Assembly (NCBI GenBank): GCA_903956845.1
Contig: CAJBOO010000238.1
Coordinates: forward strand, 1 to 12,434
Length of the DNA stretch: 12,434 nucleotides
Reading direction: 5' to 3'
Source: an uncultured Burkholderiales bacterium
Lineage (GTDB): Bacteria; Pseudomonadota; Gammaproteobacteria; Burkholderiales; Burkholderiaceae_C
Shown here one piece after another: positions 1 through 12,434 of this stretch (position 1 is its first letter; each line of letters starts with the position of its first letter). Below the pieces are notes generated by a model that was not told where the DNA came from, did not search any database, and saw only the letters and a program-made list of their open reading frames with translations. A program made the translations under genes and the position numbers.

Positions 1-134
1 GCCAACTCGATCATGTCCAACGTCAGTAAATCATTGATCTTGCGGTGAAGCATGGCGGGTGAGCCGATGTGGCTCAAGCCCATGGCTTGGGTCACGTTCA
101 AAGGCTTACCTGCATGGTTTTCACTGTTGGTCAA
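1..134 (-). CDS. Partial CDS (N-terminal end only, continues past window start); possible winged-helix/HTH DNA-binding protein
   Basis: Not in the supplied track because it runs off the window. Manual minus-strand translation from TTG at complement(132..134) gives (M)TNSENHAGKPLNVTQAMGLSHIGSPAMLHRKINDLLTLDMIEL..., open to position 1. An in-frame TAA lies 8 codons upstream. An alternative ATG start is at complement(81..83). The segment LNVTQAMGLS...LHRKINDLL resembles a helix-turn-helix. Family and start codon are unverified. Confidence 0.25.
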   Translation of the reverse strand, partial: MTNSENHAGKPLNVTQAMGLSHIGSPAMLHRKINDLLTLDMIEL

Positions 135-314
135 GACTAACCATAGCGCATTTATTTAAGAAATGCTTTAACCTACATCAACCATCGGCTTTTTTCGCTA
201 ACTGTTGTCTTTGAAAAAATCAAAAAAGAACACCATTTTGAAAATGAATACCGTTGTGAACCCAGTTGGCGTGACCGTCGTGTGCCTGGGTACAAAGAAG
301 TCAGAGGGTGGTGC

Positions 315-1148
315 TCATGCCGATTGCAATGCGTCGCGTGTGCGCTGTGCCACTTGGCGTGCCGCATGCGCAAAGTCCGCTTCTGAGGATGCATACAACA
401 CCGCGCGTGACGAGTTGACAACGATGTTGCCGCTCACCCGTCCATCGGTGTGGCGCAAACCTGCTTTGACCGTGGCCGCGGCATCACCACCTTGGGCGCC
501 CACGCCCGGGATCAGCAAGGGCAGCGTCGGCGCGATGTGGCGCACGCGTTCAATCTCGGCTGGGTAGGTGGCGCCCACCACCAAACCGAGTTGACCGTTC
601 AAGTTCCAAGGCCCTTGGGCCAAACGGGCAATGTGTTCGTACAGCAAAGGTTGTCCCTCCACCGAAGCCAAGCGCTGGTTTTGCAAATCGTCGCCACCCG
701 GATTGGACGTGCGGCACAGCAAAAAAGCGCCCTTGCCATGCCGCTTCAGGTAGGGCTCAACCGAGTCAAATCCCATGAATGGCGACAAGGTCACGGCATC
801 GGCGCCATAGCGCTCGAAGGCTTCGATCGCGTATTGCTCAGCGGTGGAGCCAATGTCACCGCGCTTGGCATCCAAAATCACGGGCACATGGGGCGCGACA
901 TCGCGCATGTGTCGGATCAGTCGCTCGAGTTGGTCTTCTGCGCGGTGCGCTGCAAAGTAAGCGATTTGCGGTTTGATGGCGCAAACCAGGTCGTGGGTCG
1001 CGTCAACGATGTGGGCACAAAAGTCGTGGATCTTGGCCGCATCCTGGTGCATGGCGGCGGGGAATCGGTGGGGCTCAGGGTCCAGGCCCACACACAGCAG
1101 TGATTGGGCGCGTTGGCTGGCTTGTTGCAGCATGTCGGTGAAGGTCAT
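315..1148 (-). CDS. pyrF: Orotidine 5'-phosphate decarboxylase (type 2, long form)
   Basis: 277-aa ORF. Motifs typical of type-2 OMP decarboxylases: LCVGLDP near the N-terminus, [38 protein letters not shown]. The start ATG is at complement(1146..1148). Confidence 0.9.
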
Positions 1149-1179
1149 GCGGCAGATTGTAGAAGTCGGGGCAGGGCCT

Positions 1180-1977
1180 TCAGGCGGGGCGCACCTGTTG
1201 CATCGCCAGGCACAGGTCTGCCCAGGCTTTGGCTTTGTCGGAGGGGGTGCGCAACAAATACGTGGGGTGGTAGCTCACCACCACCGGGCGACCATGTGCC
1301 TGGTGTACCTGGCCACGCAACTTGCCCAGGGGCTGCGAAGCCCCCTCGCCGAGGGCGGGGGTCAACAAGGACTGCGCAGCAAAGCGACCCAAGGCCAAGA
1401 TCACCTTGGGCTGCAACAACTCGATTTGCCGCTGCAAGAAAGCATGGCAATGCGCGATGTCTTCGGCGCTGGGGTTGCGATTGTCATGCGGGTGGCATTT
1501 CACCGCACTGGTCACCACGGTGTGTTCTGGCCCAGGGTGTTGGGCTTGGCGTGACAAGCCCATGGCTTGCAGCATCGCGTCCAGCAACACACCCTCATCG
1601 CCCACAAAAGCATGGCCTGCTCTGTCTTCGGCGTCCGTGGGTGCGTCGCCCACGATCAACCAATCGGCGGTTTGGCCGGGCGCGGCCGAGCCGCTGGCAA
1701 ACAAGCTGTGCTGGCGACCTTGGCACAGGCCACAAGCCTGGCAAGTCTGGGCCGCATGCGACAGCGCAGCCCAATCCATCTGCGCCAAACCCTCGGGCAG
1801 GGGCGACAAGGCCACGGCAGAGGAGCGAGCGACCACAGCGGCCGCTGTGGGTGATGGCACCGCTGGCTGCACCGGCACCGCTGGCTGCACCGGCACAGGC
1901 GTGTTGGCTGGCGACCACACCCGCACGCCCATCTCAGCCAAGATGGCGCGTTGACGGGTGTCCAAGTTCAAGCTCAT
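1180..1977 (-). CDS. Uracil-DNA glycosylase, family 4 (Fe-S type) with N-terminal Pro/Ala-rich extension
   Basis: 265-aa ORF. It has the Cys cluster [10 protein letters not shown], the motif [30 protein letters not shown] (a variant of family-4 GEAPG..E...G.PFVG.AG.LL), [23 protein letters not shown] and a C-terminal YHPTYLLR. It follows rimI, a common arrangement in betaproteobacteria. Confidence 0.8.
1856..1896. repeat. Perfect 18-bp tandem repeat (about 2.3 copies) inside the UDG linker
   Basis: GGCACCGCTGGCTGCACC occurs at 1856-1873 and again at 1874-1891, followed by a partial GGCAC. It is in frame and encodes the duplicated [12 protein letters not shown] in the minus-strand protein. 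Confidence 0.9.
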
Positions 1978-1987
1978 GGGTCAAACC

Positions 1988-2461
1988 TTAACACTGCAAG
2001 CCCATGACCACCGCGTCCTCGCGTTGCTCGAGGTTGAGGGGGTAATAGTTTTTGCGCCAACCCTCTTGCACAAAACCGTGCGCTTGGTAGACAGCGATCG
2101 CCCGTTGGTTGCTGGCCCGCACCTCTAACCAAATGGTGTGGGCGTCTCGGCTGCGGGTCCAGTCGAGCAAGGCCTGCAGCATCATGCGCGCCCATCCTTG
2201 GCGTTGGTAAGCCGGGGCGACGGTGAGGTTGAGCAAATGCACCTCGTCCACCCCGCGCATGGCAACCAGGTAGCAAGCCACCTCTTCACCCACGTGCCAA
2301 ACAGGCATGTGGTAACCCGAGGCGATCGAGTCGACAAAATGACCGCGTGTCCAGGGGTGGGAATACGCACTTTGCTCGACGTGCAAGACCTGGGGCAGGT
2401 GGTCGACGTTCATCGGCACAGACGGGGGGAAGGGCGCTGATGTGCCCCACAAACGTTTCAT
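1988..2461 (-). CDS. rimI: Ribosomal-protein-alanine N-acetyltransferase (GNAT family)
   Basis: 157-aa ORF. The GNAT core is LLNLTVAPAYQRQGWARMMLQALL...LEVRASNQRAIAVYQAHGF, with an N-terminal E..AYSHPWT motif typical of RimI. The start ATG overlaps the tsaB stop in an ATGA at 2458-2461. tsaB-rimI adjacency is conserved. Confidence 0.85.
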   Translation of the reverse strand: MKRLWGTSAPFPPSVPMNVDHLPQVLHVEQSAYSHPWTRGHFVDSIASGYHMPVWHVGEEVACYLVAMRGVDEVHLLNLTVAPAYQRQGWARMMLQALLDWTRSRDAHTIWLEVRASNQRAIAVYQAHGFVQEGWRKNYYPLNLEQREDAVVMGLQC

Positions 2462-3162
2462 GCAGACGCGGCTTTCACTGCAGCGCGTTCGAGGGTGGTC
2501 AAGGCCACTTGGTCGCGCACGTATACCGGCAGGGCCAGTTCGGGAGGCACGGCCTCACCGCGCTGCCAAGCCAAGTCAGCCAAACGCAACATGGCGCTGG
2601 CGGTTGGCCATTGCTCAAGCCCTTGCACGCCCGCTCCCAGAAGGTGTTGCAAACCTTCTGCGTGAGCGGCTTGTGCATTGCCCGCCAAGACCACCGATGT
2701 GGCTGACCATTCGGCAGGCAACGCCAAGGCAGCCGCGGTGGTGAGCATGGGCGCTTGCACCACTTGCCAAGCCTGACCCTCCCAGGCACAGGCCGAGGCA
2801 TACACCTGCCCCATGCGCGCATCCATCACGCTCATGACGCGCGTGCCTTGCCCACGCGCGGCTTCGGCCACGCACATCAAGGTGTCGATCGGCAGCAGCG
2901 GCAGGTTGGCACCCAAGGCCAAACCTTGCGCCACGGCACACGCGGTGCGCAAGCCAGTGAACGCGCCGGGGCCTTGGCCAAACGCGATGGCATCCAGTTG
3001 CTGCAATGCCATGCCGGCTTGCGACAGCAAACCCATGATGGCGGGGATCAGGCTGGCAGAGGACTGCTGGCCGCCCACACCGTCATGGGTCCATACCTGT
3101 CCTTGGGCTTGCAGCGCCAAGCTCATGCGCTCAGTGCTGGTGTCAATGGCCAAGCACTTCAT
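2458..3162 (-). CDS. tsaB: tRNA N6-threonylcarbamoyladenosine (t6A) biosynthesis protein TsaB
   Basis: The track ORF 2458..3615 is 385 aa, but the recognisable TsaB begins at residue 152. That sequence is MKCLAIDTSTERMSLAL...IAFGQGPGAFTGLRTACAVAQGLALG...PLLPIDTL. The ATG at complement(3160..3162) overlaps the upstream EamA stop (ATGA). The upstream 151 aa are antisense to the EamA gene and are rejected. Confidence 0.85.
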   Translation of the reverse strand: MKCLAIDTSTERMSLALQAQGQVWTHDGVGGQQSSASLIPAIMGLLSQAGMALQQLDAIAFGQGPGAFTGLRTACAVAQGLALGANLPLLPIDTLMCVAEAARGQGTRVMSVMDARMGQVYASACAWEGQAWQVVQAPMLTTAAALALPAEWSATSVVLAGNAQAAHAEGLQHLLGAGVQGLEQWPTASAMLRLADLAWQRGEAVPPELALPVYVRDQVALTTLERAAVKAASA

Positions 3163-4139
3163 GCGCTCACCTTGGCCAAGGGCGCTTTGCGCACCCCAAA
3201 CAAAATGCCGGCGGTCACCAGCGACAAGCCCAAGAGCAAATGCATGCCCAAGGGTTCGCCCAAAAACACCACCGCCCCCAGCGCCGACAAGCCCGGCACG
3301 AGAGAGGTGATCATGGTCGAGCGCACCGGGCCAAAGTAACGGATCATTTGGGTGAAGGTGATGCCCGAGATGACCACCGAGCCGCCGCCTTGGAACGCTG
3401 CTTGGAACAACAACTCGCTGGCGGGGGCACTGAGCAAATGGCTGGGGATGGCCCCGCTCACGGCCAGCAGGCTGTAGACAGGCACAAAGCTGAAAAAGGC
3501 AAAACACGTGATCGCGATGGTGGCGGGCACGGCTTGCAGGCCATATCGGCGGCTGATCACGCTGTAGGTAGACCAACACAAACTCGCGCTCAAAAAGAAC
3601 AGATCGCCCATCCACACGCTGCCACCATCGAAGGCGTGCAACAAACTGCTGCCGCCGACCAACATGCCGCCACTGACGATGAAGGCCAGGCCTGCCAATC
3701 GGTTGCCATGCAGACGCTCACCCAACAAGCCCAAGGCCAGCAGGCTGGTCCACACTGGCAAAAAGCCAGGCATCAACACCGAGGCGTGCGCGGCAGGTGC
3801 AAAGAAGAAACCGCTGTAACTGAGCACCGCGTAGGCCAAGCCGCCGAAAAAACCGATCCGCAGCGTCACGCCCCAGGGCAAGGGCGACAGCGACCACATC
3901 GAGCCGCTGTGTTCGCCGCGCAGGCGCGCTTGTCGGTTGAGCCAAAACCCCCAGGGCAGCAACACCAGGCTGGCGCCGACGATGCGCGCCCAGGCGATGT
4001 CCAAGGGAAGCAAATGGCGCGACGCCGAGGCTCGGGCGATGACGATGAAGGCGCTCCAAATCAAGACAGTGATGAGCGCAGCGAGCAGGCCCACGGTTCG
4101 AGGCGAGAGTTGCCGCAGGCGCTTTAAGGGTGAATGCAT
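3159..4139 (-). CDS. EamA/DMT-superfamily permease (about 10 TM)
   Basis: Hydrophobic ORF with two EamA-like halves (LLAALITVLIWSAFIVIARAS...; LFFLSASLCWSTYSVISRR...). The start was chosen at MHSPLKRLRQ (ATG complement 4137..4139). The longer 4181 start would overlap the divergent dacB region. The substrate is unknown. Confidence 0.7.
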   Translation of the reverse strand: MHSPLKRLRQLSPRTVGLLAALITVLIWSAFIVIARASASRHLLPLDIAWARIVGASLVLLPWGFWLNRQARLRGEHSGSMWSLSPLPWGVTLRIGFFGGLAYAVLSYSGFFFAPAAHASVLMPGFLPVWTSLLALGLLGERLHGNRLAGLAFIVSGGMLVGGSSLLHAFDGGSVWMGDLFFLSASLCWSTYSVISRRYGLQAVPATIAITCFAFFSFVPVYSLLAVSGAIPSHLLSAPASELLFQAAFQGGGSVVISGITFTQMIRYFGPVRSTMITSLVPGLSALGAVVFLGEPLGMHLLLGLSLVTAGILFGVRKAPLAKVSA

Positions 4140-4183
4140 CCAGGGATTATCTGTGGTGCAGCCGTGGGTTTCATAATGCACAG

Positions 4184-5644
4184 ATGTTTGCTCTGTCGCG
4201 CGTCACCCTGTTGCAAGCCGTTGGCTTGGGGCCCCCCACTCGTCGCCTGTGGGCCACCCGCTTGGCATGGCTTGCGCTGTGTTGGAGCACCCACACGTGG
4301 GCTCAAGCCACCCTGGGCGCCTTGCCCCCGGCGGTCGAAGACGCCTTGCAACGCGCCAAACTGCCGCGCGAGGCTTTGAGTGTCGTGGTCTTGCCCGTGG
4401 GCGCGGCAGGCCCTGCGCGTTTATCGCACCAAGCCGAGGCAGTGCGCAACCCGGCGTCCCTCATGAAGTTGGTCACCACCAGCGCTGCTTTGGACTTGCT
4501 CGGCCCCGCCTTTCAATGGCGCACCCCCGTGTTTGTGGACGGCAAGTTGCGCGACGGTGTGTTGCAAGGCCATGTGTATGTGCAAGGCAGTGGTGACCCC
4601 AAGCTGGGGGTCGAGCAACTGTGGCTGCTGATGCGCAGGTTGCATGGCTTGGGCATTCGCCAGATACAGGGCGACATCGTGCTCGACCGCAGTGCGTTCA
4701 GCTTGCCCCCGCATGACCCCGCTGGCTTTGATGGAGAGCCACTGCGCCCGTACAACGCTGCCCCTGATGCTTTTTTGGTGAACTTCAAATCCCTGTCCCT
4801 GCAGTTCGTACCCGACCCAGCCAACAAGCTCGCGCATGTGCATGTCGAGCCGCCCTTGGCTGGCGTGCAGGTGCAAAGCACCGTGCCTTTGATGGGCGGC
4901 GACTGCAGCGATTACCGCGCGGCCTTGCGTGCCGAATGGGGCAACCCATTGCAAGTGCGGTTCATGGGGGGGTTCCCGGCGAGTTGCAGCGAGAAGCTGT
5001 GGCCGGTGGCGTATGCCGACCCTGAACGCTTTGCCGCGCGTGCCGTGCAGGGCATGTGGCAACACGTGGGCGGCCAACTCAATGGCAGTGTGCGCGATGG
5101 TGTGGTGCCTGCGGGTTTGAAGCCCGTGTTCCTGGTGGAGTCACCCACTTTGGGCGAGGTGGTGCGCGACATCAACAAGTTCAGCAACAACGTCATGGCC
5201 GAGCAGGTGTTCTTGAGCTTGGCTTTGCAAAAGCGCGGTCAAGCCACGCCCTCTGTGGCCAAAGAGGTACTCGAGGTTTGGTGGCGTGAACGTCTGGGCA
5301 CCGAACCTCCCTTGCTCGACAAAGGCTCAGGTTTGAGCAGAGACCAGCGCATCAGCGCGCAAGCCTTGGCCCACTTGTTGCAATGGGACTGGCGACAAGC
5401 CTTCATGCCTGAGTTGATCGCTTCCTTGCCCTTGACGGGGGTGGACGGCACCTTGAAGCGCAGCAAGAGCAGTGCGAATGCGCACCTGAAGACGGGCAGC
5501 TTGAAGGACGCGATGGGCATCGCCGGTTATGTGGATGGGCAAAACGGGCAACGTTTTGTGTTGGTGGCGATGGTCAACCACGCCAACGCCAACCAAGCCA
5601 GACCGGTGATGGATGCTTTGATCGACTGGACCGCTGGGCGCTGA
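4184..5644 (+). CDS. dacB: D-alanyl-D-alanine carboxypeptidase/endopeptidase, PBP4 (peptidase S13)
   Basis: It has the active-site SxxK (NPASLMKLVTTSAAL), the SNN motif (INKFSNNVMAEQVF) and KTG (HLKTGSL), with an N-terminal signal-like segment ...LAWLALCWSTHTWAQA. The start is ambiguous: ATG 4130 in the track, ATG 4184 preferred (MFALSRV...), and later non-ATG starts are possible. Confidence 0.85.
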   Translation: MFALSRVTLLQAVGLGPPTRRLWATRLAWLALCWSTHTWAQATLGALPPAVEDALQRAKLPREALSVVVLPVGAAGPARLSHQAEAVRNPASLMKLVTTSAALDLLGPAFQWRTPVFVDGKLRDGVLQGHVYVQGSGDPKLGVEQLWLLMRRLHGLGIRQIQGDIVLDRSAFSLPPHDPAGFDGEPLRPYNAAPDAFLVNFKSLSLQFVPDPANKLAHVHVEPPLAGVQVQSTVPLMGGDCSDYRAALRAEWGNPLQVRFMGGFPASCSEKLWPVAYADPERFAARAVQGMWQHVGGQLNGSVRDGVVPAGLKPVFLVESPTLGEVVRDINKFSNNVMAEQVFLSLALQKRGQATPSVAKEVLEVWWRERLGTEPPLLDKGSGLSRDQRISAQALAHLLQWDWRQAFMPELIASLPLTGVDGTLKRSKSSANAHLKTGSLKDAMGIAGYVDGQNGQRFVLVAMVNHANANQARPVMDALIDWTAGR

Positions 5645-5691
5645 CCGACGGTCATCCCCACTTCTTTTGCGTGCACTATTTTGCATAAACT

Positions 5692-5715
5692 GGTTGTGCA
5701 TTGTGTTGCACAACC
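5692..5715. promoter_or_regulatory. Perfect 9-bp inverted repeat (GGTTGTGCA-N6-TGCACAACC) in the dacB/xmoC intergenic region; operator or non-canonical terminator hairpin
   Basis: Read directly: 5692-5700 GGTTGTGCA, loop TTGTGT, 5707-5715 TGCACAACC. No T-run follows on either strand, so it is not a classical intrinsic terminator. It is surrounded by further TTGCA/GTGCA words (GTGCAC 5671-5676, TTGCAT 5681-5686). Confidence 0.4.
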
Positions 5716-5780
5716 CACAAGATGGGCATTCAGACAAGAAATCAGATGAAAAACCCTTCATGAACTAGGTATTAACACCA

Positions 5781-5809
5781 TTGTTCAGGGGGTCTTTCTT
5801 TTCAAGAAT
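5781..5809 (+). promoter_or_regulatory. Candidate sigma70-type promoter for the monooxygenase operon (TTGTTC-N17-AAGAAT)
   Basis: -35-like TTGTTC at 5781-5786, a 17-nt spacer, and -10-like AAGAAT at 5804-5809, about 55 nt upstream of the xmoC ATG. This is pattern matching only, and other AT-rich hexamers in 5660-5830 are equally possible. Confidence 0.2.
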
Positions 5810-5851
5810 GCGAATGTCCGTTGCCTGGCAATGGTTTTTCATACCGCACCT

Positions 5852-5857
5852 AAGGAG
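5852..5857 (+). promoter_or_regulatory. Shine-Dalgarno sequence (AAGGAG) of xmoC
   Basis: AAGGAG lies 7 nt upstream of the ATG at 5865. It is the strongest SD in the window and fits a first gene of an operon. Confidence 0.75.
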
Positions 5858-5864
5858 TCATTAG

Positions 5865-6644
5865 ATGTCCACCTTGAGCAGCCGAGATCTCCATCTCAAC
5901 CCGACCACCGACACCACGTCGCGTTTCACCCTGAGTTATGTTTGGTTCGCCGTCGCCATGACCGTGTTGACAGGCGTGTATGTGTCTTACCGCGTCTACC
6001 AACAGATGTACGGCATGTCTGCCGGCCTGGACTCCACCGAGCCGATCTTCCAAGACATTTGGATGCGTTTGTTTTGGATCCAACTGCCCGTTTTGTTCGG
6101 CATCGTCGCCTTGATCCAGGTTTATCTGTTTGTCACACGTGACCGCAACATCGACGCGATCACCCCTGAGGTCGAACTCAAACGCTATTTCGCGCTCACC
6201 ATGTGGTTGGTGGTGTACACCTTCACCTTCTATTGGATTGGCAGCTTTTTCGGCGAAGGCGATGGCAATTGGCACCAAACCGTGCTGCGCGACACGCCCA
6301 TCACGCCCAGCCATGTGGTGCTGTTTTACGCCTGCATCCCGCTGTACCTGATGTTTGGCATTGGCAGCTTCGTCTATGCCATGACGCGCATCCCCGCGTT
6401 CTGCAAAGGCATCTCTTTGATGCACGTGTTCGCGGTGGTGGGTCCATTCCTTATCCTGCCTAACTTGGGCTACAACGAATGGGGCCATGCCTACTGGTTG
6501 ACCGAAGAAATCTTCTCTCATCCATTGCATTGGGGCTTTGTGGTGTTGGGCTGGAACGCCTTGTCGCTGGCTGGCGTCTTGATGCAAATCATCTCGCGTT
6601 TTCGTGATTTGATGCCCATCGTTTTCAAGAACGAAACCGCCTGA
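5865..6644 (+). CDS. xmoC: Copper membrane monooxygenase subunit C (PmoC/AmoC family; methane/ammonia/hydrocarbon monooxygenase)
   Basis: 259-aa polytopic membrane ORF with family signatures FYWIGSFFGEGDGNWHQTVLRDTPITPSHVVLFY and NEWGHAYWLTEEIFSHPLHWGFVVLGW. Asp133/His137/His150 have the spacing D-x3-H-x12-H, identical to M. capsulatus Bath PmoC Asp156/His160/His173. Asn204/His208/His222 have the spacing N-x3-H-x13-H, as in Asn227/His231/His245. Confidence 0.92.
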   Translation: MSTLSSRDLHLNPTTDTTSRFTLSYVWFAVAMTVLTGVYVSYRVYQQMYGMSAGLDSTEPIFQDIWMRLFWIQLPVLFGIVALIQVYLFVTRDRNIDAITPEVELKRYFALTMWLVVYTFTFYWIGSFFGEGDGNWHQTVLRDTPITPSHVVLFYACIPLYLMFGIGSFVYAMTRIPAFCKGISLMHVFAVVGPFLILPNLGYNEWGHAYWLTEEIFSHPLHWGFVVLGWNALSLAGVLMQIISRFRDLMPIVFKNETA

Positions 6645-6670
6645 ACGGCCTCCTCACCTAGGAATTCACC

Positions 6671-7522
6671 ATGAACACAGAAACACTGCAACACCCCCGG
6701 GGTGCTGCGGCAGGACAAACGCACGCCCACGATACCGTGGAAAGCGTATCAGGTCTGTCGCCCAAGGCCCTGCATTTCTCCCGCGTCTTCGAACTCTTTG
6801 TGGTCGCGGCCATCATCATGCTGTTTGCTGGCGCCATCCATTTGCATGTGCTGCTGTTGGCGGGCGACTGGGACATGTTCTTGGATTGGAAAGACCGCCA
6901 GTACTGGCCGCTGCTCACGCCCGTGGTGATGATCATGTTCCCAGCCGCTTTGCAGGGCATTTTCTGGACCTACTTCAGGCTGCCCATCGGTGCCACTGTC
7001 GGCGCGACTTGTTTGATGTTGGCCGTGTCGATATCACGACCCGCATCGTTCATGTGGTGGACCGACTACCCACTCAACCTGGTGTTGCCCGCGCAAATGA
7101 TTGCCAGTGCCATCGTCTTGGATGTGTTCCTGCTGGTGTTTCGCAATGCCTTGTTCACCGCGATCTTCGGTGGCTTTGCGTTCGCATTTTTGTTCTACCC
7201 TTCCAATTACGCCATCTTCGCGCCGTTTTACGTGCCAGTCAGCCACCAAGGCATGATGGCTTCCATGGCCGACATGATTGGCTACGTCTATCCGCGATCA
7301 GCGACGCCCGAGTACATCCGCATCATTGAACGCGGCACGCTGCGCACCTTTGGTGACTCGGCCAGTTGGGTGTCGGCCTTGTTTGGTGGCTTCATCTGCA
7401 TCTTCATGCACTACGCCTGGTGGTATTTGGGCATTGCCATGTCCTCCATGAAATTCCTGCCCAACAACGCCAAAGTCATGGCCTTGATGGGAACCAAACC
7501 AGATGCCAAAGCCGGTGCTTGA
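6671..7522 (+). CDS. xmoA: Copper membrane monooxygenase subunit A (PmoA/AmoA family)
   Basis: 283-aa membrane ORF with signatures GDWDMFLDWKDRQYWP, FRLPIGAT, FYPSNY and TPEYIRIIERGTLRTFG, which are near-universal PmoA/AmoA motifs. By eye against my recollection of M. capsulatus PmoA, the N-terminus is about 19 aa longer, with a His/Ala-rich GQTHAHD, and the C-terminal tail is also longer. A weak SD (AGGAA) precedes the ATG. Confidence 0.92.
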   Translation: MNTETLQHPRGAAAGQTHAHDTVESVSGLSPKALHFSRVFELFVVAAIIMLFAGAIHLHVLLLAGDWDMFLDWKDRQYWPLLTPVVMIMFPAALQGIFWTYFRLPIGATVGATCLMLAVSISRPASFMWWTDYPLNLVLPAQMIASAIVLDVFLLVFRNALFTAIFGGFAFAFLFYPSNYAIFAPFYVPVSHQGMMASMADMIGYVYPRSATPEYIRIIERGTLRTFGDSASWVSALFGGFICIFMHYAWWYLGIAMSSMKFLPNNAKVMALMGTKPDAKAGA

Positions 7523-7568
7523 GCACCCAACCTTCAAGGGGAAAATTGTGCTGTTGATTCAAAAAACA

Positions 7569-8807
7569 ATGAAGCAGTTCGCGCTTTGGCTGGGTTTGGC
7601 ATTGGTGGCGGGTGTCGCCACCGAATCCGCCTGGGCCCATGGCGAGCGTTCACAAGAACCATACCTGCGCACCCGCACCGTGCAGTATTACGACGTGCAC
7701 TACGACAAACAAACCGTCAAGGTCAACGAAGAGTTCACCTCGATTGGCAAGTTTCGTTTGATGGAAGACTGGCCCGATGCCGTGAGCCTGCCAGAAACAG
7801 TGTTTTTGGCCGCTTATGCACCCGGCCCCATGATCACGCGCGTGGAAAGCTACCTCAATGGCGTGCCTGCGCGCCAATCGTTTTCCAAGCTGGAATTGGG
7901 CCGTGATTACGAATTCAAATTGGTCATGAAGGGGCGTGTGCCTGGGCGACACCACATCCATCCCTTGTTGTCCGTCGAGGGCTCAGGCCCCTTGGTCGGT
8001 CCGGGTCAATGGATTGAAGTCACTGGCAACAAAGCCGATTACGTGATGCCGGTCACCACCATGAACGGTTTGAAAATCGACAACATCGAGTTTTATGGCA
8101 CGGCACGTGCGCTGAAATGGTATGGCGTTTGGATTGCGTTGGCTGCCTTTTGGTTGCTGTTCTGGTTGGTCCGCCCCTTGCTGTTGCCGCGCTGGATTGC
8201 TTTGAACAAAGGCCGTGAAGACGTGCTGATCACCAGCCGCGACATCACCGTGGGTGTGGTCTTGGGGGTGGTGGTGGTGGCCATCAGTTTCGGTGGATAC
8301 ATCTACGCCAACAAAGAGTACCCCTATGTGGTGCCTTTGCAGGCTGGTACCAACAAAGTCGACCCCTTGCCCTTGCCCAAGAGCGATGTGAAAGTCGTGG
8401 TCACCAAAGCCACCTATGACGTGCCTGGGCGCGCCATGTATGTCACAGCCCGCATGACCAACAACGGCCCTGAAGCGGTCTCCATTTTGGAGTTCGCCAC
8501 CGCCAACCTGCGTTTTGTCAACTTGCAAGCGCCCGGCGCTGACAAGGTCATCTCGCCAGACTATCCGCGCGACTTGGTGGCACGCGCTGGCATGGGGTTG
8601 ACCGACCAGAAACCCTTGATGCCGGGCGAAACCCGTGAAATCAAATTCGAAGCCAGTGACGCCATGTGGGAAGTCGAGCGCTTGGTCAGCTTCTTGACCG
8701 ACGTGGACTCCAAATTCGGTGGTTTGCTGTTCTTCGTCGACAAGTCGGGCAACCGCATGATGACCGAAATTGGCGGCCCCATCCTGCCCACCTTCACGGC
8801 GCTTTGA
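7569..8807 (+). CDS. xmoB: Copper membrane monooxygenase subunit B (PmoB/AmoB family), periplasmic cupredoxin subunit with signal peptide
   Basis: The signal peptide MKQFALWLGLALVAGVATESAWA is followed by mature HGERSQEPYLRTRTVQYYD (compare the PmoB HGEKSQ N-terminus). The HxH ligand pair is in PGRHHIHPLLSVEGSGPLVGPGQWIEV. There are two TM helices (WYGVWIALAAFWLLFWLV; ITVGVVLGVVVVAISFGGYIY) and a C-terminal cupredoxin domain (ATYDVPGRAMYVTARMTNNG...EFATANLRFVN). Alternative starts are GTG 7548 (preceded by AAGGGG) or the track ATG 7503. Confidence 0.9.
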   Translation: MKQFALWLGLALVAGVATESAWAHGERSQEPYLRTRTVQYYDVHYDKQTVKVNEEFTSIGKFRLMEDWPDAVSLPETVFLAAYAPGPMITRVESYLNGVPARQSFSKLELGRDYEFKLVMKGRVPGRHHIHPLLSVEGSGPLVGPGQWIEVTGNKADYVMPVTTMNGLKIDNIEFYGTARALKWYGVWIALAAFWLLFWLVRPLLLPRWIALNKGREDVLITSRDITVGVVLGVVVVAISFGGYIYANKEYPYVVPLQAGTNKVDPLPLPKSDVKVVVTKATYDVPGRAMYVTARMTNNGPEAVSILEFATANLRFVNLQAPGADKVISPDYPRDLVARAGMGLTDQKPLMPGETREIKFEASDAMWEVERLVSFLTDVDSKFGGLLFFVDKSGNRMMTEIGGPILPTFTAL

Positions 8808-8808
8808 C

Positions 8809-9384
8809 ATGTCAATCAAACACCTGTTGTTGACTGGGTGCCTGTGGCTGAGCGCCACAGGTGCTTGGGCGCACGGTGGCTTGTCCATGGACCAAGACAT
8901 GTGCAAGCTCACCGTCGGCCCTCACATGATGCATTTCGCGGGCTACCAAGAAGACGCGCAACGCACCGAGTTTTGTGAAGACATTCCGCACAACGGGCCG
9001 ACCGTCATCGTGCTCGATGTGGTGGACTTGGCGCTGCGTGATTTGCCCATCGAATTTCGCATCGTTCGCAAAACCGACGGCCCCTTGGAGGCAGCGCCTG
9101 AGGTCTTCAAACTCGCGCCTGCGGTTTATCCCAAGGGCACGGTGTTGATTCGCCACGATTTCATAGACGATGGCGACTATGTCGGCATGGTCTATGCGGG
9201 CGCTGACCGCAAGTATGCGTCGGTGTTTCCTTTCTCGGTGGGCAATCCCCGCGTGCCATATTGGAAATACACCTTGGGCTTGGTGGCTTTGCTGTTGCTC
9301 GCGGTGGCGGGCCTTCAGGTCGGCCGCCAACGGTTGCAAAGAGACGTGGCCATGCAAAGCCCCAACGACACGCAAGGGACTTGA
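8809..9384 (+). CDS. pmoD: PmoD/AmoD/AmoE-like periplasmic copper protein with C-terminal membrane anchor
   Basis: The ATG at 8809 lies 1 nt after the xmoB stop; the track ORF started earlier, at 8770. The signal peptide MSIKHLLLTGCLWLSATGAWA is followed by HGG. A C-x7-M-x-H motif (CKLTVGPHMMH, nt 8902-8934) matches, as I recall it, the CuA-forming motif described for PmoD. There is a beta-rich periplasmic domain of about 150 aa, then a single C-terminal TM (YTLGLVALLLLAVAGLQVG) followed by RQRLQR. Its position directly after subunit B matches amoCAB-amoE/D and pmoCAB-pmoD loci. Confidence 0.6.
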   Translation: MSIKHLLLTGCLWLSATGAWAHGGLSMDQDMCKLTVGPHMMHFAGYQEDAQRTEFCEDIPHNGPTVIVLDVVDLALRDLPIEFRIVRKTDGPLEAAPEVFKLAPAVYPKGTVLIRHDFIDDGDYVGMVYAGADRKYASVFPFSVGNPRVPYWKYTLGLVALLLLAVAGLQVGRQRLQRDVAMQSPNDTQGT

Positions 9385-9386
9385 AC

Positions 9387-9749
9387 ATGTGCGCGGGGTG
9401 GCGCTGGTGGGGTTTGTGCATGGTGGGCTTGCCTGTGTGGGCAGGGGCCCACGCACACTTGCTGGGCACTGAGCCCCCCAGCAACGCCCTCATCAGTCAA
9501 TCACCCCAGCAACTGCGCTTGCGGTTTTCTGAACCGATTGAGCAACAGTTCGTGCGCATCCAGGTCATGGCGGATGCCAAACCGCTGCCGCTGAATCCAG
9601 CCAACATGCAGTGGGAAGCTTCCGCCAAAACCCTGGTGGTCAACCTGCCCGCCCACCAAGCCAGCAGTTACCAAGTGCAGTGGTCCATCTTGGCCAAAGA
9701 TGGACACGCTGGGAAAGGGCAATACACCTTCAAAGTCAAGTCACCTTAG
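9387..9749 (+). CDS. copC: Periplasmic copper-binding protein CopC (Cu(II)-site-only type)
   Basis: The ATG at 9387 lies 2 nt after the pmoD-like stop, with AAGGGA as SD. The signal peptide ...GLPVWAGA is followed by a mature HAHLLGTEP N-terminus (His1 of the CopC Cu(II) site). The C-terminal W.ILAKDGHAGKGQYTFKV carries the conserved D-x-H. A Met-rich Cu(I) loop is absent. Confidence 0.85.
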   Translation: MCAGWRWWGLCMVGLPVWAGAHAHLLGTEPPSNALISQSPQQLRLRFSEPIEQQFVRIQVMADAKPLPLNPANMQWEASAKTLVVNLPAHQASSYQVQWSILAKDGHAGKGQYTFKVKSP

Positions 9750-9751
9750 CC

Positions 9752-11638
9752 GTGGATCCCATCCCTGTCCTGCGCGGTGTTCAAACTGCCCTGATGGCAT
9801 GGGCGTTTGGGCTGTTGTTCACCTCATGGCTTGGTTCACCCACACCGCGTCAAATGACGGCGCGCCGACTGGCATGGTGGCTGACTTGGGCGGCATGGCT
9901 GGTTGCACTGGCCCGGCTGGCCGACATGGCTTGGCATCTCTCGTCATTGAGCGAGGCTGAGCCCAGCGTTGGACTGGTGGCGCAGACTTATGTCGGTCAG
10001 GTGTTATTGACCCAGGTGGTTTGTCTGTCCCTGGTGCTGGTCTCGATATGGCAGGCGCGTGCGGTCAAACTCGGTCTGTGTGGGATGGTGTTGGCCATGC
10101 TGTGCACCGCCTTGGCCGGTCACGTCACGGCGGCTGCCGAGGGTTGGCGGCAAATCGTGGTGTCGCTCACACATGTGTTGCTCGCGCAGTTGTGGCTTGC
10201 AGGCGTGTGGGGTCTGTGGTGGCAAAGCCGGCGCAGCGACGAGGCGGTCGAGTCTTGGCGTCAATCCTTGGCGCGCTTTTCCAAGCTGGCCTTGCCAGGC
10301 ATGCTGCTGCTCTTGCTGTCAGGGCTGGGCTTGGCGTATTGGACTGTGGGCAGTTGGCCGGCTTTGCTGGCCACGGCGTATGGGCAACAGTTGCTCATCA
10401 AATCAGGGTTGGTGGTGGGTGTCTTGGTGTGTGCGTGGCAATTGCGCCAATGGTTGGTTAGGCCAAGCGACACAGGCAACCTGGGTCGTGCATGGCTGAG
10501 CAGTGAGAGCAGTGTGGCCTTGGCGGTGTTGTTGATGGCCAGTGTGATGGCGGCCACCGTGCCGGCGGCGCACGACACCATCGCGTGGCCATTCGCATTT
10601 CGTTGGGCCCCAGTGTTGGCTTGGCGGCAAGACCCGATAGGCACAGGCCAAAGCTTGGCGTGGGCAGCGGGCTGGTGTGTGCTGGGGGGCGTTTGCTGGG
10701 CCATCTGGCGTCGCGGCCATCGGCAGCGTGCACGCGGGGCTTTGGTCGCAGGCATCGTGGGTGGGTTGGTCGTGGCTTTACCGGCCACCAGCATTTCCGC
10801 TTACCCAACCACTTACATGCATTCGTCGGCGCGTTTGGATGCGGCATCTGTCTCGGCCGGCGAACAGCTCTATGGTCAGCACTGCTTGGCCTGCCATGGC
10901 GTGCACGGGCATGGCGATGGCCCGGTGGCGGCACTGAACCGACTCAAACCCGCCAACCTGACCGAGCCCCATGTCAGTTGGCACACCCATGGTGACATGT
11001 TTTGGTGGCTCAGCCACGGCAAAGGACCCATGCCAGGCTTTGCCGATGTCTTGTCAATCGACGAACGTTGGCACCTGATCAATTGGTTGATCGCGATGTC
11101 TTTGGGATACGAAGCCCGCACGCTCACCAGCACACCTTCGCCCTTCAACCCCTGGTTGCCCAGCATCGATTTCCGTTTTCAAATGGACAACAACCAATTC
11201 ATGTCCTTGTCTGAGTGGCGCGGCTTGCATGCGGTGCATTTGGTCATCGTCAACCATGAAAGCCAATTGCAGCGCGTGCGTGACTTGTTGCAAGACATGA
11301 AGGGTTTTCCGGCGCAACTGGTGATCGTCAGCCGGCCCGCATGGTTGAAGGACTTGGTCAAAGGCCCGTGCGAGGCTATTTTGGTGAGCGACCCGCAAGG
11401 CGAGATCGCACAAGCGTGGGCGAACTACCGCCGAAGCTTTGCTGCACCCGATTTGCTGAATGAAGAAACCCAGGTGCCACGCATGGAGTTTTTGATCGAT
11501 CGGTACGGCTTTGTGCGCGCACGCTGGCGCTCAGACGAGTCGCCCTCGGCCTTGTCTGTGAGCGAACTCAAAGCGGTTTACGACAGCTTGTCTGTGGAAG
11601 GTGAAATCAAATCCGCAGCGATACATCAACATGACTGA
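9752..11638 (+). CDS. copD: CopD-family membrane protein fused to a periplasmic class-I cytochrome c domain and a C-terminal Cys-less thioredoxin/redoxin-fold domain
   Basis: The likely start is GTG 9752, 2 nt after the copC stop, giving (M)DPIPVLRG...; the alternative is ATG 9794. About 10 predicted TM helices carry CopD-like LAGHV...SLTHVLLAQLWLAGVWGL. A positively charged loop RRGHRQRAR lies between the last two helices. Next comes heme motif CLACH (nt 10883-10897) with downstream GPMPGF as the likely Met ligand. The C-terminal segment of about 160 aa (FMSLSEWRGLHAVHLVIVNHES...ILVSDPQGEIAQAW...MEFLIDRYGFVRARW) has an AhpC/TSA/TlpA-like pattern but no Cys at the catalytic position. Confidence 0.75.
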   Translation: MDPIPVLRGVQTALMAWAFGLLFTSWLGSPTPRQMTARRLAWWLTWAAWLVALARLADMAWHLSSLSEAEPSVGLVAQTYVGQVLLTQVVCLSLVLVSIWQARAVKLGLCGMVLAMLCTALAGHVTAAAEGWRQIVVSLTHVLLAQLWLAGVWGLWWQSRRSDEAVESWRQSLARFSKLALPGMLLLLLSGLGLAYWTVGSWPALLATAYGQQLLIKSGLVVGVLVCAWQLRQWLVRPSDTGNLGRAWLSSESSVALAVLLMASVMAATVPAAHDTIAWPFAFRWAPVLAWRQDPIGTGQSLAWAAGWCVLGGVCWAIWRRGHRQRARGALVAGIVGGLVVALPATSISAYPTTYMHSSARLDAASVSAGEQLYGQHCLACHGVHGHGDGPVAALNRLKPANLTEPHVSWHTHGDMFWWLSHGKGPMPGFADVLSIDERWHLINWLIAMSLGYEARTLTSTPSPFNPWLPSIDFRFQMDNNQFMSLSEWRGLHAVHLVIVNHESQLQRVRDLLQDMKGFPAQLVIVSRPAWLKDLVKGPCEAILVSDPQGEIAQAWANYRRSFAAPDLLNEETQVPRMEFLIDRYGFVRARWRSDESPSALSVSELKAVYDSLSVEGEIKSAAIHQHD

Positions 11639-12434
11639 ACGCGCTTCCAACCTGTGGATGCAGCGAGGGCAATGGCTGATCGCCGCCTTGGCCGTGAGCG
11701 GTTTTTTGTACCTGGTGGCGCAAAGTTGGCTCAAACCACCGTTGCCCGCAGCGGCAGCCTCGCTGACCCCCTTGCCTGAAGGCTGTGCCCCTGGCTTGAC
11801 GGGTCAGCCCGGGCGACACATGGATGTGCAGACCCCCCATGGCTTGCGCTACTCGGTGGTGGCCCCCAGCAACTACCAGCCCACGCAACGCCACGGTTTG
11901 TTGATGATGTACCCACCCGCAGGTTTTTCCAACGACCTGGCAGAGCGCTATTACCGTTTGAGCGAAGAAGCCAATCGCCATGGGTATGTCGTGGTGTTCA
12001 GTGACGCCATCCCCTTGTCCGCACGAGCGTTGCGCCTGCAAAGCGAGGTCGTGCCCGATGTCGTGGCGCACTGGTGCATCGATCCCGAGCGGGTGGTGTT
12101 TGCGGGGCATTCGGATGGTGGGAGTGTGACCACGGGCTTGACGGTGCGTGCATCGGTCTCGCCGCCACCCACCCGCATCGTGTCGAGTGCCGCGGGCATC
12201 ACAGCGCAAGACTTGCAGCAAGAGCGATGCCCAGCACCTTTGCATGTCACGGTGTTGCACAACCCCAAGGACCAGTTGTTTCCGGGCTATGGCGAGGGTG
12301 TGGTCACGTGGTGGGGGCAGTGCATGCAATGCACCGAGCAAGTGCAAACCGAGCCCTCAGGATGTGTGGTGCGCCAGTGCGCGCAAGGCAAGGTGTTGCG
12401 GCACTGTGTGACTTCCGAGCCGCATGTGGTCTGG
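11631..12434 (+). CDS. Membrane-anchored alpha/beta-hydrolase (esterase / PHB-depolymerase-like family), partial, continues beyond window end
   Basis: Absent from the track because it has no stop in the window. My manual translation from ATG 11631, which overlaps the copD-fusion stop by 8 nt, is open for all 268 codons. It reads MTERASNLWMQRGQWLIAALAVSGFLYLVAQSW (TM anchor)...RHGLLMMYPPAGFS...HGYVVVFSD...IDPERVVFAGHSDGGSVT (G-x-S-x-G nucleophile elbow)...VTVLHNPKDQLFP...SEPHVVW. The 246-aa minus-strand ORF 11607..12347 is its antisense shadow. Confidence 0.5.
   Translation, partial: MTERASNLWMQRGQWLIAALAVSGFLYLVAQSWLKPPLPAAAASLTPLPEGCAPGLTGQPGRHMDVQTPHGLRYSVVAPSNYQPTQRHGLLMMYPPAGFSNDLAERYYRLSEEANRHGYVVVFSDAIPLSARALRLQSEVVPDVVAHWCIDPERVVFAGHSDGGSVTTGLTVRASVSPPPTRIVSSAAGITAQDLQQERCPAPLHVTVLHNPKDQLFPGYGEGVVTWWGQCMQCTEQVQTEPSGCVVRQCAQGKVLRHCVTSEPHVVW

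Follow-up and report, generated by a model that had tools for sequence, protein, structure and literature searches.

The stretch of DNA analyzed here, which we call the window, comprises 12,434 nucleotides (nt), positions 1 to 12,434 of the forward strand of contig CAJBOO010000238.1 (assembly GCA_903956845.1), from an uncultured Burkholderiales bacterium. Its genes of interest are co-oriented and compactly arranged in the order xmoC, xmoA, xmoB, a PmoD homolog, copC, a long open reading frame (ORF) and a further gene that runs off the end. The long ORF, hereafter the fusion gene, is the subject of this work, and its sequence predicts a CopD transporter, a periplasmic c-type cytochrome and a Cys-free peroxiredoxin-like domain on a single polypeptide, with the following parts:

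9752-11638, + strand: fusion gene, a continuous ORF of 628 amino acids (aa)
9752-10570, + strand: CopD core, transmembrane (TM) helices TM1-TM8, aa 1-273 (Pfam PF05425, YebZ alignment and helices)
10571-10798, + strand: family-specific extension, aa 274-349 (YebZ ends directly before it; hydropathy and AlphaFold2 helices)
10799-11092, + strand: predicted periplasmic class I c-type cytochrome domain, aa 350-447 (Pfam, phmmer, Foldseek and conservation)
11093-11602, + strand: predicted peroxiredoxin (AhpE/BCP)-like thioredoxin-fold domain, aa 448-617 (AlphaFold2, Foldseek and family profile)
11603-11638, + strand: C-terminal tail ending in IHQHD, that is His625-x-His627 (nt 11624-11632), then the stop codon (conservation and predicted local distance difference test, pLDDT)

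The reading frame is open without a break from 9611 to 11638 in the ORF list. The fusion gene starts with a GTG at 9752, 2 nt past the copC stop, and homologs align with its product from residue 1. The original prediction, made from the letters of the window, had described an uninterrupted ORF of about 628 aa and had considered that a frameshift or a stop might split it; the ORF stands and the gene is not split. Pfam recognizes CopD, Cytochrome_CBB3 and Cytochrom_C in the product and leaves the last 180 residues without a match. A protein search returned 132 relatives, almost all of 600-700 aa and carrying the same pair of CopD and cytochrome matches, and the three-domain architecture is found end to end in more than 110 independent protein clusters of this length. 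When the C-terminal domain served as the profile of an exhaustive search, 212 clusters (50% identity) matched at E<=1e-30, and in nearly all of them the domain forms the C-terminus of a protein of 600-700 aa; 481 species genomes of a species-representative collection encode a relative. The full-length AlphaFold2 model has a pLDDT of 90.2 and a predicted TM-score (pTM) of 0.82, values that point to a definite arrangement of its domains. These comparative data rule out, with next to no doubt left, that a frameshift or an assembly error joined separate copD, cytochrome and redoxin genes into one long ORF, and the high confidence of the full-length model argues against such an artefact as well. 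Proteins of about 200 aa consisting of the C-terminal domain were considered as a separate, stand-alone architecture and rejected: they start 21-22 residues before the domain, at the conserved Met427, and are probably fragmentary gene calls.

The membrane part is made of an eight-helix CopD core followed by two additional helices. Both the hydropathy scan and the secondary structure of the AlphaFold2 model show ten TM helices, in line with the count of about ten hydrophobic helices given in the original prediction. The core scores 57.5 bits against Pfam CopD (PF05425; cut-off 32.1, E 2e-15), above threshold, and 60.3 bits against the NCBIfam equivalog model copper_CopD (NF033808), well under its cut-off of 195, so that the protein is best classified, on these model scores, as a member of a divergent CopD subfamily and not as a classical resistance-operon CopD. 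The two helices with CopD-like His residues singled out earlier proved to be the relevant ones. His124 of LAGHV (nt 10121-10123) and His141 of SLTHVLLAQLW (nt 10172-10174) align with His135 and His154 of E. coli YebZ, and they are present, as are Trp148, Lys217 and Glu252, in 112/112 members of the family alignment, on which all conservation counts given here are based. In YebZ, the H135A change lowered copper uptake and the H154A change abolished it (PMC11923076). The membrane core thus retains two periplasm-facing His whose YebZ equivalents are required for copper uptake, and the fusion protein is assigned by homology to the CopD transporter family.

Past the point where YebZ ends, the extension runs from a periplasmic PAAH(274)DxIxW(279)PFxFR segment through TM9 and a cytoplasmic RRGHRQRAR loop (aa 320-328) to TM10, with AlphaFold2 helices at 295-319 and 324-345. 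His274 and Trp279, at the periplasmic end of TM8, are found in 112/112 members. The charges of the loops fit the positive-inside rule throughout, with the Arg-rich loop between TM9 and TM10 on the cytoplasmic side, and therefore place the N-terminus and all residues after 349 in the periplasm, as had been proposed from that loop. A periplasmic location after residue 349 is what a c-type cytochrome requires.

The domain that follows scores 43.7 bits against PF13442 Cytochrome_CBB3 (cut-off 27, E 3.6e-11) and 30 bits against PF00034 Cytochrom_C (cut-off 21.3, E 1.4e-06). The single CxxCH heme motif and the GPMPGF Met candidate noted in the original prediction both hold across the family. CLACH lies at aa 378-382 (nt 10883-10897), a CxxCH is present in 112/112 members, and every full-length member has a single one; Met427 of GPMPGF (nt 11030-11032) is likewise conserved in 112/112 and is the presumptive axial ligand. 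From this conservation the heme is predicted to be six-coordinate, with His/Met ligation. Other conserved positions are His407 (109/112), His411 (110/112), Trp418 (110/112) and Trp419 (109/112), and an AYPTTY motif immediately past TM10 is also conserved in the family.

The nearest solved relative of this domain is cytochrome c552 of Thioalkalivibrio paradoxus (phmmer E 7e-16; Foldseek against 9vr0, TM-score 0.81, root-mean-square deviation 1.3, 34% identity), in which Met103 of GRGPMPGF aligns with Met427. Cytochrome c552 co-purifies with the tri-copper thiocyanate dehydrogenase and accepts its electrons; its midpoint potential is about +160 mV, its heme is unusually exposed, its ends are disordered and rich in His, and its structural group includes the cytochromes cL of methylotrophs (PMC9456337). 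The best modelled electron path between the two proteins starts at a copper ion and reaches the heme 7-propionate by way of His83 (PMC9456337). His83 of c552 aligns with His407 of the fusion protein and His87 with His411, both within an E-H-x3-H-x-x-G-D loop common to the two cytochromes (PDB 7O9U, 9VR0). This correspondence fits a heme domain built for electron exchange with a copper centre, as homology to a modelled path and not as a proof. The two cytochromes differ in that c552 is a soluble, stand-alone acceptor of electrons from thiocyanate dehydrogenase, whereas the fusion cytochrome is tethered to a transporter.

For the C-terminal domain, the original prediction had proposed an AhpC/TSA/TlpA-type redoxin fold without Cys at the expected site. 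Among the Pfam families it had named for a domain search, the CopD and cytochrome families gave the matches described above, whereas AhpC-TSA (PF00578) reaches 13.2 bits on the fusion sequence alone (cut-off 26, E 0.089), below threshold; some distant homologs do have a precomputed PF00578 match. The fold was nevertheless upheld by the family profile and by modelling. A profile of 29 members matches AhpE (E 1.1e-8) and the BCP peroxiredoxins (about 1e-8) in PDB, and the AlphaFold2 model of the domain (pLDDT 87.3, pTM 0.87) matches AhpE 1xxu (E 1.1e-7) and Bcp1 3drn (E 1.7e-7) in Foldseek, with ResA/TlpA-like proteins close behind (ResA about 1e-6) and Sco far weaker (BsSco 1xzo, E 1.7e-3). Profile and model together predict a peroxiredoxin/thioredoxin fold closer to AhpE/BCP than to Sco.

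A census of Cys residues confirmed the second half of that proposal. Aligned to AhpE, the fusion protein lacks the peroxidatic Cys of the PxxxT/SxxC active-site loop, and the family has 3 residues fewer, precisely at the 'gic' (Gly-Ile-Cys) segment of AhpE. A check of the sequence found no CxxxC, the Sco copper site, in the C-terminal domain and no CxxC outside the heme motif. The sole Cys of the domain, Cys540, is clade-specific and lies elsewhere in the fold. About 95% of the family has no Cys at or near the active-site loop, and most members have none in the whole domain. In four members (P0047, P0053, P0055 and P0060) the peroxidatic-loop position is occupied by a Cys (VSSCG, FSCRQEN), with another Cys 35-40 residues on; this subclade possibly represents a thiol-active ancestor or variant. 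The conserved residues of the domain are Asp473, Arg508, Glu579, Asp583, Arg584, Arg589, Arg591, Trp592 and Glu616, with Asp583 and Arg589 in 111/112, Arg591 in 106/112 and Trp592 in 108/112. At the catalytic Arg position of peroxiredoxins the fusion protein has Arg, and 49/112 members have His. The chain then ends in the HxH tail. Such a motif lies inside the last 6 residues in 96/112 members (His625 in 109/112, His627 in 97/112), and the pLDDT falls below 50 at residues 626-628, so that the tail is probably flexible.

The fusion gene is accompanied in the window by the following genes:

5865-6644, + strand: xmoC (Pfam AmoC, E 7e-88)
6671-7522, + strand: xmoA (Pfam AMO, E 6e-80)
7503/7569-8807, + strand: xmoB (Pfam Monooxygenase_B, E 1.4e-136)
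8809-9384, + strand: PmoD/AmoE-type gene (phmmer against PmoD PDB 6CPD, E 1.7e-17)
9387-9749, + strand: copC (Pfam CopC, E 8.9e-19; PDB CopC 6nfq, E 3.8e-13)
11631-12434, + strand, running off the window: alpha/beta-hydrolase-like gene whose ATG overlaps the fusion stop, ATGACTGA

The xmoCAB genes (5865-8807) are identified by these matches as genes of a copper membrane monooxygenase (CuMMO). Against the NCBIfam models of the bacterial ammonia monooxygenase, AmoB (514, cut-off 336) and AmoC (342, cut-off 319) are above the cut-off and AmoA (284.5, cut-off 290) is slightly under it. The flanks of xmoCAB are ordinary chromosomal genes. The G+C fraction over xmoCAB (5501-9000) is 0.52-0.58, lower than the 0.60-0.66 of the housekeeping genes on either side and of most of the fusion gene, a dip that could be a sign that the monooxygenase genes were acquired horizontally.

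The product of 8809-9384 matches no Pfam or NCBIfam model; its sequence contains the Cx7MxH...C motif found in operon-type PmoD/AmoE and has a TM helix at the C-terminus. The alignment of the CopC product to 6nfq starts at the AHAH cleavage region, and the signal peptide ends in AHA, which leaves His at the mature N-terminus. This His and a DGH motif are features of a Cu(II) histidine brace, the Met-rich Cu(I) loop is absent, and the protein is thus predicted to be a periplasmic Cu(II)-binding partner. In the PDB search it also matched another solved CopC chain, 5n1t_M (E 1.4e-07), listed under entry 5N1T; if that entry is a flavocytochrome c complex from T. paradoxus, it would provide a precedent for a CopC in direct contact with a c-type cytochrome protein. 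The product of 11631-12434 is Cys-rich, secreted or membrane-anchored, and has a GHSDG motif and at best weak matches to esterase or polyhydroxyalkanoate-depolymerase families; its gene may belong, so far unrecognised, to the accessory genes of CuMMO. The gaps from xmoB through the PmoD homolog and copC to the fusion gene are 1-2 nt, and the fusion and downstream genes overlap by 8 nt. These gaps and the overlap at ATGACTGA fit a single transcription unit with translational coupling.

The neighbourhood of the fusion gene was surveyed in the best 80 of the 481 genome matches. In 35-38 of these 80 loci xmoC, xmoA or xmoB and a PmoD homolog lie near the fusion gene, upstream and in the same order in nearly all; the exceptions are one inverted locus (L062) and two with the monooxygenase genes downstream (L067, L071). 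The copC gene adjoins the fusion gene in 64/80. When the survey was restricted to the 49 well-flanked loci, with at least 5.5 kb upstream, and monooxygenase genes were counted within 10 kb, the order xmoCAB-pmoD-copC-fusion seen in the window was present in 31 (63%). The link to the monooxygenase made in the original prediction is consequently borne out by the position of the gene, 2 nt after copC, and by its synteny. The gene after the fusion is either the esterase-like alpha/beta-hydrolase, as in the window, or PCuAC, and hydrolase-like homologs adjoin the fusion gene or pmoD in 22/80 loci, mostly CuMMO-bearing ones. Loci without CuMMO genes fall into two blocks. One is made of Beijerinckiaceae (metagenome-assembled genomes, MAGs, labelled Methylocella or Methylocapsa, and USCa_MF), with copC and the fusion gene in a conserved housekeeping neighbourhood; the other comprises Deltaproteobacteria, Binatia, Rokubacteria and Methylomirabilota, in which the fusion gene lies beside rhodanese, amidohydrolase and VWA genes. 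USC-alpha-like Beijerinckiaceae, Methylomirabilota, Binatia and Rokubacteria are groups known to carry CuMMO.

His-rich tails recur among the neighbour proteins as on the fusion protein. Small secreted proteins with His-rich C-termini (e.g. ...QKGHHEHH; cluster c16) lie beside copC or the fusion gene in L012, L015, L021, L044 and L046, and PCuAC, with an end such as ...PIHHHTQH, does so in L013-L017 and L020.

A search of the plasmid collection found distant, CopD-less relatives alone, on secondary replicons of Burkholderia and Ralstonia. On a secondary replicon of Burkholderia cenocepacia (L081, 5788-6846) a distant relative of the window's C-terminal half (29% identity, E 1e-21) consists of two TM helices, a cytochrome c and a Cys-poor peroxiredoxin-like domain, and lacks the CopD core, His407/His411 and the HxH tail; ORFs read by hand place it next to ABC-transporter and luciferase-like monooxygenase genes. 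Similar tblastn matches came from Ralstonia sp. (L082) and from B. stagnalis replicons.

The architecture itself is not new. About 4% of some 50,000 proteobacterial CopDs, including that of Methylosinus trichosporium OB3b, have been reported to carry a cytochrome cbb3 domain and a C-terminal Sco1/thioredoxin-like domain (PMC11923076), and the extended operon of OB3b is pmoCAB-pmoD-copC-copD-pCuAC (PMC6189053). Both the architecture and its operon context are thus already on record, uncharacterised, and the window adds a betaproteobacterial member. The prevalence that the original prediction had left open can therefore be settled: with this share and with 481 species genomes, the architecture is common. 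The OB3b protein shares with the window the domain order and the logic of the operon, and PCuAC after the fusion gene, as in OB3b, is also found in Bradyrhizobium loci; the window differs in its betaproteobacterial host and in its next gene, which is esterase-like and not PCuAC. What our analysis adds is conserved residues and synteny statistics. In the literature found there was no mention of the family-wide loss of Cys, of a fold nearer to AhpE/BCP, of the terminal HxH, of His274, of AYPTTY, of the correspondence to c552 and its His83, of the 31/49 synteny figure or of the CopD-less relatives, and literature searches on CuMMO in Comamonadaceae or Betaproteobacteria with copD gave nothing relevant.

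Comparison with other known systems sets the parts of the fusion protein apart. The eight-helix YebZ, Pseudomonas CopD and PcoD (PF05425) share its membrane core, the two uptake His and the pairing with a CopC homolog, but YebZ ends after TM8, whereas the fusion protein continues with the conserved His274 segment, a further two TM helices and about 280 residues in the periplasm. A precedent for a C-terminal extracytoplasmic domain with a target-specific role on a multidomain CopD is Bacillus subtilis YcnJ (CopC-CopD-YtkA), whose YtkA domain supports CuA assembly in cytochrome caa3 (PMC13344008); there a YtkA domain is appended instead of a cytochrome c and a peroxiredoxin-like domain, and CopC is fused, whereas in the window it is separate. 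With AhpE and BCP (PrxQ) (PDB 1XXU, 3DRN) the C-terminal domain shares the fold and the motifs APDF and (F/L)(L/V)(I/V)DRxG, and it differs from them in lacking the peroxidatic Cys, in its shorter loop and in the added HxH tail. Sco1/SenC and TlpA/ResA are also periplasmic, membrane-tethered thioredoxin folds with a link to copper enzymes, although the fold similarity is weak and the C-terminal domain has neither the CxxxC and His copper site known from Sco nor the TlpA/ResA CxxC.

The route by which copper reaches the methane-, ammonia- and alkane-oxidising copper monooxygenases, and the oxidation state in which it arrives, are unsettled. The fusion protein unites a transporter bearing copper His of a proven type, a one-electron carrier akin to the partner of a copper enzyme and a His-tipped arm, and in most well-flanked related loci its gene follows pmoD and copC directly. 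We favour, tentatively and at somewhat less than an even chance, a module for redox-assisted copper acquisition and hand-off that serves the copper monooxygenase. The two additional helices lead the chain back to the periplasm, and the cytochrome and the redoxin-like domain are tethered there above the mouth of the transporter. In the proposed module CopC would deliver Cu(II) to the periplasmic face of CopD, with the HxH tail and His274 as candidates for the capture or relay of the ion. The periplasmic electron-transport chain would keep the tethered heme reduced, and the heme would pass one electron to the bound copper by way of the edge formed by His407 and the heme propionate. Tightly held Cu(II) needs to be released, and a one-electron reduction at the mouth of CopD would let it leave its site as Cu(I), which could then either pass through CopD or be delivered to partners of the PmoD/PCuAC type and to the monooxygenase. 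With its thiol chemistry lost, the redoxin-like domain would act as a scaffold or as a docking and metal-handling module, and not as a reductase. A stronger form of this proposal, possible though we regard it with some doubt, is a self-contained bacterial cupric reductase-transporter, in which a heme fed by the respiratory chain would reduce Cu(II) held on CopC, on the HxH tail or on His274 for loading of the monooxygenase. If true, this would be a dedicated metalation route with a logic like that of the eukaryotic Fre/Steap reductases and Ctr1, and we know of no demonstrated route of this kind in bacteria. The hypothesis of a heme-driven reduction of Cu(II) coupled to uptake or hand-off is testable on a soluble fragment of 280 residues, and it suggests a reason for the difficulty of interpreting results from isolated enzymes and from knockouts of single genes.

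Several observations weigh against this interpretation. YebZ imports copper without a cytochrome (PMC11923076), so that reduction is no general requirement of CopD proteins. In M. trichosporium OB3b, copCD was reported, from a mutant, not to be critical for copper uptake or for the copper switch (PMC7558416), with the caveat that this organism has methanobactin and redundant systems. No CuMMO gene lies within 10 kb in 18/49 well-flanked loci, and a cytochrome and redoxin-like pair exists without CopD in Burkholderia, beside unrelated genes. In this cytochrome subfamily His407 and His411 could have a purely structural part to play, although their absence from the CopD-less Burkholderia homolog is in favour of the proposed role. 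The mechanism is also inferred at three points, namely heme incorporation, copper binding by the tail and electron transfer. The original prediction had regarded a ubiquitous occurrence of the same fusion in genomes that lack CuMMO, and unrelated to it, as a point of refutation, and on this the loci are divided, with the 31 that carry CuMMO genes supporting the link and these 18 opposing it.

The same division bears on the rival that we consider unlikely but the most serious, namely that the fusion protein acquires copper in general, to supply any cuproenzyme of the periplasm or membrane (such as oxidases or N2O reductase), that its position next to xmo reflects high copper demand only, and that the cytochrome may serve to link uptake to the redox state of the respiratory chain or to sense that state. 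The 18 loci, with their Beijerinckiaceae housekeeping and Deltaproteobacteria, Binatia and Rokubacteria settings, are what this rival would expect, as are the abundance of CopC and CopD outside methane and ammonia oxidisers (PMC6189053) and the 4% of proteobacterial CopDs that have this form. Many of the taxa without an adjacent CuMMO are, however, those known to carry CuMMO elsewhere. CuMMO genes are rare among bacteria, and despite this rarity 63% of the well-flanked loci adjoin them, in a fixed order and with pmoD. A role of the tethered cytochrome in donating electrons to the monooxygenase, by itself or as part of a donor chain, with CopD as a mere anchor, seems improbable to us. The physiological reductant of the copper monooxygenases is unsettled, the gene is operonic with xmoCAB in 31/49 loci, and cytochromes cL and a partner of a copper enzyme belong to the structural group of this cytochrome, all of which speaks for a donor; but a mere anchor would have no need of the transport-linked residues, all of which the CopD core retains, the fusion also occurs in the 18 loci without nearby CuMMO genes, a potential near that of the nearest homolog is unlikely in a sole donor for the activation of O2, and nothing in the data indicates contact with XmoB or XmoC. 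Of the two roles that the original prediction had offered for the heme, electron exchange with copper gains indirect support, from the c552/His407 parallel, and donation to the monooxygenase has no specific support and is weakened by the mild phenotype reported for the OB3b copCD mutant (PMC7558416). Very unlikely indeed is an oxidative-stress or thiol-redox device, in which the C-terminal pair would be a peroxidase or a Sco/TlpA-like reductase for the assembly of copper sites. The ranking of folds, with AhpE/BCP first and ResA/TlpA and Sco after, the four Cys-bearing members and the published naming of the domain as Sco1- or thioredoxin-like (PMC11923076) lean that way, against which stand the lack of Cys near the shortened active-site loop in the fusion protein and about 95% of its family, the absence of CxxC and CxxxC, and a heme that conservation predicts to be six-coordinate and hence no peroxidase arrangement. 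A thiol peroxidase or Sco-like function for the fusion protein of the window was rejected because it has no catalytic Cys.

The best genome matches were Comamonadaceae MAGs, and the hosts of the family include these and other Burkholderiales MAGs, Bradyrhizobium (including B. shewense ERR11), Polaromonas, Rhodoferax, Methylibium and Hydrogenophaga. One locus, labelled 'uncultured Bifidobacterium sp.' (L009), carries a Burkholderiales-like xmoCAB-pmoD-copC-fusion cluster, and its label is probably a binning error in the public record.

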